Counted from the first letter of the stretch, positions 25,293 through 56,602 are shown. The stretch is 64,000 nucleotides of DNA from a virus (IMGVR_UViG_3300013131_000024:1-64000), one strand, 5' to 3'. Numbers and translations are program-made. The notes: generated from the sequence alone by a model not told the origin.

Positions 25293-27191
25293 ATGTCTAA
25301 GATCATCGGTATTGACCTCGGCACCACCAATTCATGCGTGGCTATCGTCGAGAACGGAACTTCCAAAGTAATTGAAAATTCGGAAGGTGCTCGTACTACA
25401 CCTAGTATCGTTGCCTATACAGAAAGTGAAGTTCTAGTTGGAGCCAGCGCCAAGCGTCAGGCTGTAACAAATCCCAAAAATACAATTTATGCATCTAAGC
25501 GTTTAATTGGTAGGAAGTTTGCTGAAAAAGAAGTGCAGAAAGATCTAGATCTTATGCCCTATGAAATTTTTGAAAGTTCTAACGGCGATGCTTGGATCAG
25601 AGCGCAGAATAAAGAATTAGCCCCTCCACAAATTTCAGCAGAAGTTCTTCGCAAAATGAAAAAGACCGCAGAAGACTATCTTGGAGTTGAAGTAACTAAA
25701 GCGGTTATCACGGTTCCTGCATATTTCAATGATAGCCAAAGACAGGCTACAAAAGATGCCGGACAAATTGCAGGCCTAGAAGTCTTGCGAATCATCAACG
25801 AACCAACTGCGGCAGCATTAGCTTACGGAGTTGATAAAACAGATAAAAAAGATCGTAAAGTCGCTGTTTACGATCTAGGCGGTGGTACATTTGATATCAG
25901 TATCATCGAGATAGCTAACGTTGATGACGACAAACAGATCGAAGTTCTTTCTACCAACGGTGATACGTTCCTAGGTGGTGAAGATTTTGACCAACGCATC
26001 ATGGATTATCTGGTCGACGAGTTTAAGAAAGAACAAGGTGTTGATCTTACCAAAGACATGCTGGCTCTTCAGCGTTTGAAAGATGCTGCTGAAAAAGCAA
26101 AAATTGAATTGTCTAATAGCACACAGACGGAAGTAAATCTTCCTTACATCACAGCCGACGCCAGCGGTCCAAAACATTTGGTAGTAAAAATTACCAAGGC
26201 AAAATTAGAAAGTTTAGTCGATGATTTGATTCAGCGTAGTTTGGAACCATGTCGTATCGCACTACGTGATGCAGGAGTATCTGCTTCTGATATCGATGAA
26301 GTTATTCTAGTCGGTGGTCAAACTCGTATGCCTAAGGTGCAAGAAGAAGTCGAAAAGCTTTTCGGTAAGGCACCACGTAAAGATGTAAATCCTGATGAAG
26401 CAGTGGCAGTAGGTGCTGCGGTACAAGGTGCTGTTCTAGGTGGTGATCGTACAGATGTTCTATTACTGGACGTTACTCCTTTGTCATTGGGTATTGAAAC
26501 ATTAGGTGGTGTAATGACAAAGATCATCCAGAAAAACACTACTATTCCGACGAAAGGTCAACAGAATTTTTCTACAGCCGAGGATAATCAACCGGCAGTA
26601 ACTATAAAAGTGTTCCAAGGTGAACGTGAATTAGTCCAACATAACAAACTGTTGGGAGAATTTAATCTAGAAGGAATAGCTCCTGCACGTCGGGGTCATC
26701 CTCAGATCGAAGTTACATTTGATATTGATGCTAATGGAATAATGCATATCTCGGCCAAAGATAAAGGCACCGGCAAAGAAAACAAGATCACTATCAAATC
26801 AGATAGCGGATTAAGCAAAGAACAAATCGAACAAATGATTAGAGATGCAGAAGCAAATGCAGAATCAGATAAAAAAGCACGTGAACTTATCGAAACTAAA
26901 AATTCTGCTGAGGCTCAGATACACGAAGTTCGTAAAGATCTCGAAGAATTTCGCACTGATTTAACTGAAGATGAAATCAAACAGATCGAGGATGTGATTA
27001 AATCTGTAGAAGAATCATTAAAAACAGATGACAAAGATCAAATCATCGAGAATCTGAATAAAGTTTATCCGGCAATGAAAACTTTGTTAGACAAAAAACA
27101 AGCAAAAACACAGACACAGCAGACACAAGATGCACCCTCACAGACAGACGACAATGTAGTCGATGCTACCTTTACGGAGAAAAAAGACTGA
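25293..27191 (+). CDS. dnaK: Chaperone DnaK
   Basis: [28 protein letters not shown]. Confidence 0.98.
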
Positions 27192-27240
27192 TAGGTACCT
27201 TGAGGGGCCTTTAACTATTCTTACTTTAAAAGGAGAAAAT

Positions 27241-29159
<1,919 letters not shown>

Positions 29160-50244: not shown

Positions 50245-50343
50245 GCCTCTGTAGCTTAATGGTAAAGAAGGGAGCTTATACCTCCCCAAAGCACAGGCCA
50301 GATAAGCCTGAGTGTGCAGGTTCGAGTCCTGCCAGAGGCACCA
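50245..50343 (+). tRNA. tRNA-Ile(TAT) with long variable arm
   Basis: GGGAG-CTTATAC-CTCCC; about 29-nt variable region; 99 nt. Confidence 0.85.
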
Positions 50344-50349
50344 GTTAAT

Positions 50350-50426
50350 GGCTCCGTAGTTCAGTCCGGCAGAACGTTGGTCTCCAAAACCAAATGTCGG
50401 TGGTTCAAATCCATCCGGGGTCGCCA
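50350..50426 (+). tRNA. tRNA-Trp(CCA)
   Basis: Loop CTCCAAA. Confidence 0.95.
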
Positions 50427-54921: not shown

Positions 54922-54995
54922 GCCCTTTTAGTATAATGGTAATACAGTGGATTTGTAATCCTCTGATGGCAGTTCGATTCTGTCAAGGGGCACCA
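54922..54995 (+). tRNA. tRNA-Thr(TGT)
   Basis: Loop TTTGTAA. Confidence 0.93.
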
Positions 54996-55046
54996 AGATT
55001 ACCAAAATGTCTTGACACAGACACAAAACAGTGTATAATAAGTTTT

Positions 55047-55320
55047 GTTGTGTAGCAATACACAACCGGTGAAGTGAAAGGTAGATGAGGATAGACGCCT
55101 AGTATGGTTTCATACCATACGAACTTATCTGGCAAAGACGACTTGAAAACGTCTCCGTGCTTGAGTGAGCTGATCCAAATATCTTTAACTAGACTGTCAA
55201 TTGCTGATCGGAAATATTCAGGTCTCTGTAGCCTGTCTATTGCACGTTGTCCAGACCGACGATATCGCACAATAGGTCTTGTCAATTGTCCGGTCTATTA
55301 CTTGACCTTTCATCGATCCG
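55047..55320 (+). ncRNA. Structured RNA with 7-nt-periodic YTG motifs
   Basis: Own promoter (TTGACA 55012); long-range GTGAAAGGT/ACCTTTCAT and GATAGAC/GTCTATT pairings. Confidence 0.6.
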
Positions 55321-55349
55321 TCATTATAATTGTAAAAAGAGAGACACAA

Positions 55350-55922
55350 ATGAATATCACACTACGCAAAGCAAATGCAGTACAAAACAGCATCAATGAT
55401 GCACTAAAAAACATTAAGGTTGATCTTAATGTTGAGATTAACGAGTTTCAAAATATCGAAGATGTTATTGGCAAAGCCAATAACACTTTGGTCGAAAATG
55501 ATGCACGTCGTCAAAAGTTGACTATGGCTTTGTACAATATCCGTGCTTTAGTAGGTACTGCAAATGCTGCGAGTGGAATTGACACTGCGCTGGCCAAGGC
55601 AGCGTTCATCGATAAACGTATTGGCCAATTAGAGCAATTGGCGAGCTCTACTGAGATGACTTCTTTAGAAATCATTAAAGGCAAGATTGAAAAGATCAAA
55701 AGTCTCAAGGACGAAGCTCGTAGCCGTATCTATGGCTATGGAGACACGGTAACAACTTCTGTTCTCAGCAAAGAACAGATCGCACAGGCCAAATCAGAAA
55801 TCCTTAATCTGAAAAAGCAAAAGCAAAAGCTCAACGATGAGATCCTTGAGCTGAATATCAAAACCGATATTCCATTATCAGATGATACTGTAGAATTACT
55901 ACAAACAGAAGGATTACTATGA
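55350..55922 (+). CDS. Helical coiled-coil protein, distantly DIP1984-family-like
   Basis: 190 aa from ATG 55350; ends LKKQKQKLNDEILELNIKTDI; family resemblance judged by eye. Confidence 0.6.
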   Translation: MNITLRKANAVQNSINDALKNIKVDLNVEINEFQNIEDVIGKANNTLVENDARRQKLTMALYNIRALVGTANAASGIDTALAKAAFIDKRIGQLEQLASSTEMTSLEIIKGKIEKIKSLKDEARSRIYGYGDTVTTSVLSKEQIAQAKSEILNLKKQKQKLNDEILELNIKTDIPLSDDTVELLQTEGLL

Positions 55923-55928
55923 TATTGC

Positions 55929-56002
55929 CGCGGGTTATAGAAAAGGCATCTTACCAGTCTCATAAGCTGGAGTTGGGGGTTCGAGTCCCTCACCCGCAAC
56001 CA
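55929..56002 (+). tRNA. tRNA-fMet(CAT)
   Basis: C1xA72 mismatch, loop CTCATAA. Confidence 0.88.
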
Positions 56003-56031: not shown

Positions 56032-56520
56032 ATGAATATCGCAATAATAATCGATTGTTGGAAAGATACACCAACTACATTGCATCATATAATTCTCTCT
56101 AAAATATTTAGATCGACAAGATTCGTTTATTTAAATATTAAGAAATTTTTAAGTTCAGATTTAATAGATGTAATAATTATTTCTTCCTACGACGACAAAG
56201 ATACTACTCCTACTATTTTAAACATAGACAAGAAAAAATTCTTTTTTTTACACGAAGAACAATTAATAGAATTTTTAAAAAATAATTCAGTTAAAAATAT
56301 CTATATGTGTGGTTGTGCCTGGGATAGTTGTGTAAGAGATCGTCCTCTTGGTTATTTGAATGTCTATAAAATTATTAATTCATTGAACTTAGATATTAGT
56401 GTTTTAGTAAAATATAACTGTGTTAAAAACTTAGATGACACATATTTTGTAAAATCAAAAAATGATGACTGGGTAAAAACCAGTGTAAAAAATATTTTTA
56501 AATACTATCCAAAATGTTAA
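56032..56520 (+). CDS. Isochorismatase/cysteine-hydrolase-like protein
   Basis: IIIDCW...IYMCG.AWD.CV..RPLG. Confidence 0.55.
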   Translation: MNIAIIIDCWKDTPTTLHHIILSKIFRSTRFVYLNIKKFLSSDLIDVIIISSYDDKDTTPTILNIDKKKFFFLHEEQLIEFLKNNSVKNIYMCGCAWDSCVRDRPLGYLNVYKIINSLNLDISVLVKYNCVKNLDDTYFVKSKNDDWVKTSVKNIFKYYPKC

Positions 56521-56527
56521 AGAATAT

Positions 56528-56598
56528 GTGGGAGTAGCTCGGTTGGTAGAGCATTTGCCTTTCAAGCAAGATGTCGTGAGTTCAAGTCTCGCAACCAA
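56528..56598 (+). pseudogene. Degenerate copy of tRNA-Gly(TCC)
   Basis: Near-duplicate of 56695-56770 with anticodon changed to TTC and acceptor 3' strand lost. Confidence 0.7.
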
Positions 56599-56602
56599 TT
56601 AG

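Follow-up and report, generated by a model that had tools for sequence, protein, structure and literature searches.

An RNA of about 280 nucleotides that displays short motifs at 7-nucleotide intervals is encoded next to the gene for a 190-amino-acid helical protein, and this pair recurs in many phages. These features suggest that an independently promoted noncoding RNA and its neighbouring protein form a two-gene module of jumbo phages in which a protein oligomer reads the heptads, an interpretation that we regard as evenly poised between right and wrong. The pair was recognized in the window, which is the whole 64,000-nucleotide stretch of viral DNA that was analysed. The features discussed are collected in Table 1.

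The window comes from a viral contig of 110 kb, of which it forms the first 64 kb. Because CheckV estimates the completeness of this contig at 31%, the whole phage genome is roughly 350 kb. Nearly the entire stretch is contained in three lake-water metagenome runs, two of which are possible sources of it; runs containing a small share of it were left out of the habitat reading. Other genes in the window encode ribonucleotide reductase, DnaK, GroEL, and SAH hydrolase. The DnaK is full-length (Hsp70, E 1e-255) and is encoded together with the GroEL-type chaperonin at 25293-29159. The region from 50 to 57 kb is a tRNA island (26 tRNA calls by ARAGORN and 28 by Rfam). Within it, the RNA and the 190-aa gene sit between a tRNA-Thr (54922-54995) and a tRNA-Met (55929-56002), and the promoter is followed by about 300 nucleotides with no plausible ORF and then by the 190-codon ORF.

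Table 1. Positions of the RNA, its helices and heptad clusters, and adjoining features in the window
Feature	Position	Strand	Remarks
Sigma-70-type promoter of the RNA	55012-55039	+	-35 TTGACA (55012-55017), N16, -10 TATAAT (55034-55039); score 12/12
5' single strand RUUUUG	55042-55046	+	Conserved in window clade and distant subfamilies
P1 hairpin, GNRA tetraloop (GCAA, 55055-55058)	55047-55054 with 55059-55066	+	5/9 pairs compensatory
P2, 5' strand CGG	55067-55069 with 55318-55320	+	Invariant; covariation neither for nor against
P3	55074-55082 with 55305-55313	+	2 pairs with double changes, 3 with single-sided changes; 99.8% of cells paired
AGAUGAGGAUAGAC block	55083-55096	+	Invariant columns
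P4	55086-55096 with 55293-55304	+	U-A to A-U covariation at 55092/55297
P5 variable hairpin	about 55100-55121	+	5/5 scored pairs compensatory
P6 hairpin	55132-55158	+	Conserved YUGAAMA loop; 5/7 pairs compensatory
P7 long hairpin	55159-55223	+	P7a, 55159-55167 with 55215-55223; P7b, 55170-55173 with 55208-55211
Heptad cluster A (2 heptads)	55194-55207	+	3' side of P7b loop; UG at 55195 and 55202 invariant
Heptad cluster B (4 heptads)	55226-55253	+	Single-stranded junction segment; UG at 55227, 55234, 55241 and 55248 invariant
P8 variable hairpin inside heptad array	55253-55279	+	Stems of relatives differ in sequence
Heptad cluster C (2 heptads)	55279-55292	+	Abuts 3' strand of P4; UG at 55280 and 55287 invariant
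3' strands of P4, P3, and P2	55293-55320	+	Most conserved stretch of the RNA
Second promoter-like site, TTGACC-N17-TATAAT	55302-55330	+	Within 3' end of the RNA, faces the ORF; score 11/12
190-aa helical protein gene	55350-55922	+	Adjoins the RNA; AlphaFold2 model, pLDDT 85.9
tRNA-Met(CAU)	55928-56002	+	Directly 3' of the 190-aa gene

Several further observations concern the tRNA island. If C55928 is taken as base 1, the tRNA-Met has a C1:A72 mismatch, which is an initiator-like feature, and a tRNA-Met likewise lies 3' of the homologous gene at a distant locus (L344). Two tRNAs that are absent from the ARAGORN list are called by Rfam, one of 96 nt at 50245-50340 (59.3 bits) and another at 56528-56600 (44.8 bits). 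A sub-threshold match to YrlA (Y RNA-like) occurs at 50288-50409 (27.8 bits, E 0.013), and Ro60 and Y RNA-like genes have been reported in phages of the CcrColossus type (PMC12135203). A 162-aa ORF between tRNAs (56032-56520) has a weak, partial match to an isochorismatase domain that falls below the cut-off (E 0.0015).

The RNA extends from about 55046 to 55322 on the plus strand. The promoter that the earlier note placed ahead of it is kept in nearly all relatives, with both hexamers conserved in most of 51, and transcription probably starts near 55046. Three relatives (L066, L128, and L136) have no such promoter, and their RNAs directly follow a tRNA.

The fold of the RNA is conserved. As a single sequence, the window RNA folds modestly better than its shuffles (z -2.35). 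A noncoding stretch upstream of the gene is conserved in nearly all of 80 IMG/VR loci that were fetched for relatives of the protein. The alignment of the 51 unique sequences among them contains the conserved promoter and invariant blocks with variable hairpins between the blocks, and analysis of 50 trimmed sequences by using RNAalifold yields 57 pairs in eight helices, with compensatory changes in 24 of the pairs. In the same alignment, 98.1% of cells are paired, compared with 88.2% in shuffles and 29-40% in slid controls. The 24 pairs with double changes compare with 3-12 when partners are slid by one to three columns, and the covariation score was matched by none of 500 shuffles. The many invariant G-U pairs indicate that the RNA is encoded on the plus strand.

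A closing stack of P2, P3, and P4 joins the two ends of the RNA, and hairpins P1 and P5 to P8 complete the scaffold. The earlier note had described a GCAA-capped hairpin and long-range pairing between the ends. The hairpin is P1, which covaries and whose loop is always GNRA among relatives (GCAA, GAAA, GUAA, or GGAA); the long-range pairings are P3 and P4, both of which have compensatory changes. A GGTCT/AGACC stem that had been drawn around the four central heptads is not conserved, and instead GGT lies in P7 and AGACC pairs with 55275-55279 to form P8. In P7a, 5/9 pairs are compensatory and 100% are paired; for example, CCGAU/AUCGG is replaced by CCAAU/AUUGG in one relative (L072). The AGAUGAG core of the AGAUGAGGAUAGAC block recurs in distant clades and in cultured phages. 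Candidate 11-nt GNRA receptors (CCUAA/UAUGG) and a C/D-box-like K-turn in AGAUGAG/CUUGA are not supported, as each occurs in some clades as fragments that are misplaced or inexact.

Because heptamer repeats can be iterons and a promoter-like site overlaps the 3' end, the repeats might act as DNA, as protein sites or an origin, with the RNA structure being incidental. This is scarcely credible, given the strong, strand-specific covariation with G-U pairs, the dedicated and conserved promoter ahead of the element, and the presence of the region in metatranscriptome libraries. Metatranscriptome contigs from four freshwater studies cover the RNA, which, as contigs only, are weak evidence of its presence. 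Their summed depth is far greater over the RNA than over the ORF, a difference that cannot serve as evidence of abundance or of the RNA's ends, since contigs cannot rank genes and the conserved core pools many strains.

The heptads are arranged in three clusters, whose order is two, four, and two across 70 unique RNAs; cluster A begins 32 nt ahead of cluster B in nearly all of these. Phased 7-nt heptamers had been proposed from the window, in which a run of at least four phased UG dinucleotides is mildly unusual (equalled in 18 of 2,000 dinucleotide shuffles). The periodicity is significant because it is conserved among relatives, and not from the window sequence alone: all eight UG dinucleotides are invariant in the 51 aligned sequences and in the 70 unique RNAs. 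The pooled consensus is Y(U 70%, C 21%)-U-G-Y(U 76%, C 19%)-N-N-A(57%), and G is scarce elsewhere. A 7-nt period cannot come from coding.

The layout of the heptads varies, but the number of slots does not. In eight diverged RNAs that lack P8, the four heptads of cluster B and the two of cluster C run on in one register as a row of six. CcrColossus, Gurke, and L200 have a layout of 2+6, and distant subfamilies have a hairpin after slot 3, which gives a layout of 2+3+3. The rule is that two slots are in the loop of the P7 hairpin and six are between P7 and P4, the six being split 4+2, 3+3, or 6+0 by an optional hairpin. The eight slots are kept while the sequence, the hairpins, and the preferred first base (UUG, GUG, UUGC) change. 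Mimicry of NUG start codons or of a YUG anticodon of tRNA-Gln is a remote idea that was set aside: the preference at position 1 is U>>C>G>A, and Y rather than R follows the G.

The bare repeat is not specific to the module, since the protein is present in 2 of 118 of the matches listed in an unbiased scan of IMG/VR for five TTG triplets at 7-nt spacing. Some small IMG/VR contigs of 4-9 kb (L213, L216, L230, L234, L236, L266, L271, L276, L279, and L285) each contain more than one 5xTTG-N4 array (two or three, spaced at about 0.8-1.2 kb) and no relative of the 190-aa protein. These arrays are an unrelated periodic repeat.

The heptads could conceivably participate in tertiary or quaternary contacts of the RNA with itself, as in the self-assembling ROOL and GOLLD RNAs, with the protein being an accessory. 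The conserved GNRA tetraloop of P1 suggests tertiary docking, and the phage tRNA-island context resembles that of ROOL and GOLLD. This reading is very unlikely, because no complementary or covarying partner of the heptads was found, and because only UG and the flanking Y are fixed while other positions drift, which is typical of read-out by protein and not of base pairing. In the window, the P1 loop is complementary to UAUUGC of cluster B, which raised the possibility of a pseudoknot; this was rejected because the heptad is invariant and does not follow the changes of the loop to GAAA and GUAA. The phage RNA is also distinct from ROOL and GOLLD in its size (about 280 nt versus 580-800 nt), in its periodic single-stranded heptads, and in its obligatorily linked protein gene, although all three are phage-borne, highly structured, and often adjoin tRNA genes. 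Moreover, no Rfam 15 family matches 54996-55349 at E<=1 by cmscan, and none matches the homologous regions of Kabachok, Gurke, CcrColossus, and L200; the families covered include tmRNA, RNase P RNA, 6S, YrlA/Y RNA, ROOL, GOLLD, and T-box. No tmRNA is called by ARAGORN.

The gene next to the RNA encodes an almost all-helical protein, as the earlier note had stated. AlphaFold2, applied with 20 relatives, predicts six helices and a small two-stranded sheet that joins the N- and C-terminal ends, and many basic residues are conserved. The family is large and is found only in phages: 1794 relatives are present in a 90%-clustered collection, a profile search of 1.84 billion representatives retrieves 1463 clusters at 50% clustering (E<=0.001), and relatives are encoded on 383 IMG/VR stretches, on contigs of up to 374 kb. 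Among prokaryotes, sampled at one genome per species, the search for close relatives gave a single partial match, in a metagenome-assembled genome. Pfam, NCBIfam, and PHROG have no family for this protein. The name DUF465/YdcH, which JGI applies to some relatives, was rejected, as there is no Pfam match to it and the match to HP1242 is weak and coiled-coil-like (E 0.05).

A resemblance to the DIP1984 family, which had been proposed by eye, holds at most at the level of the fold and not at that of the family models. The best solved structure by Foldseek is 3KDQ (E 0.03, prob 1.0), a Corynebacterium diphtheriae protein that we take to be DIP1984. VIA-align also ranks 3KDQ first (Z 11.0, rmsd 6.3, 142/152 residues), 2 Z above the next structure, with the proviso that for helical proteins a Z below about 13 may reflect a common arrangement. 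DIP1984 proteins correspond to Pfam DUF6847. The family models NF038048 and PF20935 do not match the window protein (E<=1 and E<=0.1, respectively), and of 47 relatives a single one matches them (E 0.0026 and 0.0024), with the family cut-offs not reached. Profile-profile comparison with four true DIP1984 members by using hhalign aligns only the C-terminal 45 columns, at a probability of 2.6%. In the ESM Atlas, the protein matches a mostly viral cluster at 0.91, and PF20935 is assigned to 19% of the members. BFVD contains the same fold in CcrColossus, Vibrio phage Vp_R1, and Erwinia phage pEa_SNUABM_47, with weaker matches in two giant viruses; Catovirus is among the structural relatives listed there. 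The match to 3KDQ thus covers nearly the whole chain and is accompanied by a similar C-terminal sequence motif, whereas the phage protein is about 40 aa longer. The phage family is at most a distant relative of DIP1984, for which no publication on function was found.

The RNA and the gene are genetically linked, as established by searches from both sides. When a pattern of the RNA's 3' strand was used to retrieve IMG/VR contigs and an nhmmer profile to select true RNAs, a homologue of the 190-aa protein was found downstream, on the same strand, in 35/35 loci with enough flanking sequence, with protein identities down to 50%. The window's own contig has one copy of the RNA. When 53 unique and diverse loci of the protein were searched for an array, defined as at least seven phased UG within 140 nt, an array adjoined the gene on the same strand in 49 of 50 testable loci, being upstream in 41 and downstream in eight; four of the 53 loci had no array, and in three of these the flanks were too short. 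Reverse-strand and coding controls have a mean of about 2.4 phased UG. Some clades and cultured phages have the reverse order, with the RNA and the gene still adjacent. The flanks of homologous genes, which the earlier note had named in advance as the place where its proposal could fail, thus carry the RNA and the 7-nt periodicity, and this supports a functional RNA-protein module.

The linkage extends to cultured phages. Homologues of the protein are present in Brevundimonas phages Kabachok, Domovoi, Papperlapapp, Bambus, Marchewka, Gurke, and Kikimora, and in Caulobacter phages CcrColossus (gp272) and CcrPW. Six cultured loci were fetched, and all have an unannotated gap of 285-315 nt directly 3' of the gene. 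Each gap contains heptad arrays, an AACCG...GAGGA 5' block that resembles that of the window, and a long closing helix with covariation between the groups; applied to six sequences, RNAalifold finds compensatory changes in 22 of 53 pairs. The genes that neighbour the pair in Kabachok and CcrColossus have no homologue in the window's contig, and the RNA and the 190-aa gene are the sole pair common to that contig and these phages.

Some loci depart from this pattern and weigh against read-out of heptads by the protein. Pseudomonas phage PA5oct encodes a very distant homologue, EST35_0180 (24% identity to one family member); the flanking sequence, over about 480 nt, contains no heptad array, and such an array is likewise missing from all four of the published noncoding RNAs that RNA-seq has defined in this phage. 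L386, with its twin L391, has another noncoding stretch in place of an array, and bacterial DIP1984 genes (Planctomycetota loci) have no heptad array nearby. EST35_0180 has been detected by ESI-MS/MS in virion preparations. The stretch in L386 (1753-2110, also in L391) comprises about 350 nt of noncoding sequence downstream of the gene, with a tRNA-like T-arm and acceptor end (GGTTCGATTCC...CACC) that ARAGORN calls neither a tRNA nor a tmRNA.

The RNA is directly upstream of the gene in the window, as in the 41 loci noted, and ends about 25 nt before the ribosome-binding site; in the window, no intrinsic terminator separates the two. Perhaps, then, the RNA is a cis-acting leader or UTR whose heptads are bound cooperatively by the 190-aa protein, which would repress its own synthesis in the manner of T4 gp32 or RegA. 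Some ORF invariably lies within about 30 nt of the end of the RNA, which leaves room for a role in cis. As in the T4 gene 32 and RegA operators, repeated short single-stranded motifs lie beside the gene of a possible binder, and the site size of T4 gp32 is 7 nt. We nevertheless consider a leader quite unlikely. The site of an autoregulatory operator lies in the 5' UTR or ribosome-binding site of its own gene, whereas the phage RNA does not overlap the ribosome-binding site and is downstream in the eight loci noted and in every cultured phage of Caulobacter, Brevundimonas, or Vibrio that was examined. In Vibrio phage 2.275.O, the gene is followed by the RNA and then by an intrinsic terminator. 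In 18 loci of the window's clade, an ORF of 71-83 aa intervenes between the RNA and the gene (for example, L027:805-1035 and L021:1274-1504). Judging from MARI...GNRFDLVL..A.QRARE...ALREIE.G, this ORF presumably encodes an RNA polymerase omega (RpoZ)-like protein; the window's 110-kb contig has no copy of it. The gene may also be served by a second promoter within the 3' end of the RNA in the window, and in some relatives it has its own promoter. The -35 element of this promoter-like site coincides with invariant P3/P4 sequence, and the -10 element occurs only in a subset of relatives. Finally, the RNA is more conserved than protein-coding DNA and has a large, elaborate scaffold. The reading in the earlier note, an uncharacterised ribonucleoprotein or autoregulatory leader, is thus supported in part: the linkage favours a functional RNA-protein module, and a simple 5' leader is disfavoured by the downstream RNAs, the rpoZ-like ORF, and the promoter that the gene itself has in some relatives.

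A UG every 7 nt, a fixed set of slots, and a gene that is inseparable from the RNA in either order are most simply explained if a protein oligomer reads the heptads. The RNA is a multi-helix scaffold that displays eight single-stranded heptads, Y-U-G-Y-N-N-A, with two in the P7 loop and six along the strand leading back to P4. The helical protein, as an oligomer or as dimers, might read one UG per subunit at a 7-nt register; with the number and geometry of sites set by the folded scaffold, the product would be a ribonucleoprotein whose stoichiometry is defined. Because the six-slot strand (42 nt) starts and ends at the same junction, it could wrap around a ring or lie along a short filament, and the two-slot cluster at the far end of P7 could touch the same particle or a second one. 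The fold of the RNA, the periodic motif with its 2+6 rule, and the genetic linkage are observed, and from these we infer direct binding, the stoichiometry, and a role for the particle. In its most specific form, the proposal is a phage ribonucleoprotein with exactly eight YUGY heptads (2+6) and a DUF6847-like oligomer in fixed stoichiometry that acts in trans during infection; to this form we give slightly less than even weight. That the module is often located in phage tRNA islands is a hint of a connection with RNA or with translation. Possible roles in trans include tRNA function or translation, a decoy against host RNA-targeting defence, and a component of the virion or of its assembly.

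Another partner might read YUGY every 7 nt, such as a host RNA-binding protein or a phage protein, in which case the RNA would be a sponge or decoy, and the helical protein would have some functional link to it (a chaperone or regulator, for example) without reading the heptads. CsrB and RsmZ are known sponges with single-stranded, multi-copy motifs, and the heptads are likewise single-stranded, G-poor, and multi-copy. The RNA also has a strong promoter of its own and is located in tRNA islands, a common site of phage counter-defence genes. However, a sponge is unlikely, because even deeply diverged loci, in either gene order, almost universally have the RNA beside a single protein family, and a direct partnership is the simplest explanation for this. 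In addition, we know of no host protein that reads YUGY every 7 nt.

Read-out of evenly spaced motifs by an oligomer has precedents in bacteria. HutP is a hexamer that binds UAG-N4 repeats in the terminator/antiterminator RNA of the Bacillus hut operon. The phage RNA shares with it triplet-like, single-stranded motifs in separate clusters, a presumed oligomeric read-out, and the 7-nt period, which corresponds to triplets plus 4 nt. In contrast, the phage motif is YUG(Y) and not UAG, the neighbouring protein is all-helical and has no HutP domain, and the eight sites (2+6) are in a 280-nt scaffold rather than 2x3 in a short leader. The phage RNA also has its own promoter and no terminator switch. 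TRAP is an 11-mer ring that is wrapped by a trp leader with 11 (G/U)AG triplets. Its leader resembles the phage RNA in having evenly spaced short motifs with degenerate spacers, and the 42-nt junction strand could similarly wrap a ring. The two differ in period (7 versus 5), in the UG motif, in fold, in the phage stable-RNA context, and in the fixed 2+6 layout. The 9-11 (G/U)AG triplets with 2-3-nt spacers and MtrB that characterize TRAP leaders are not found for the phage RNA, and there is no MtrB-like protein.

A literature search found no paper on the heptad RNA or its module, and the RNA is annotated in none of the nine cultured genomes. Together with the lack of an Rfam family, this suggests that the RNA class and its partner protein are both new. 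To our knowledge, few structured phage RNAs have a protein dedicated to them; phi29 pRNA and Ro60-Y RNA are among these few.

The module is abundant in metagenomes, with more than 1400 protein clusters at 50% identity, and it spans phages from uncultured freshwater representatives to jumbo phages of Caulobacter, Brevundimonas, and Vibrio. Cultured carriers make it accessible to experiments, among them CcrColossus (gp272, with a 285-nt gap downstream), Kabachok, Gurke, and Vibrio phage 2.275.O. If the proposed reading is true, the pair would provide a first functional handle on the DUF6847/DIP1984 fold, and the RNA would be a new Rfam class and an example of periodic single-strand read-out alongside those of TRAP and HutP. 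It may also partly explain the role of tRNA islands in jumbo phages.
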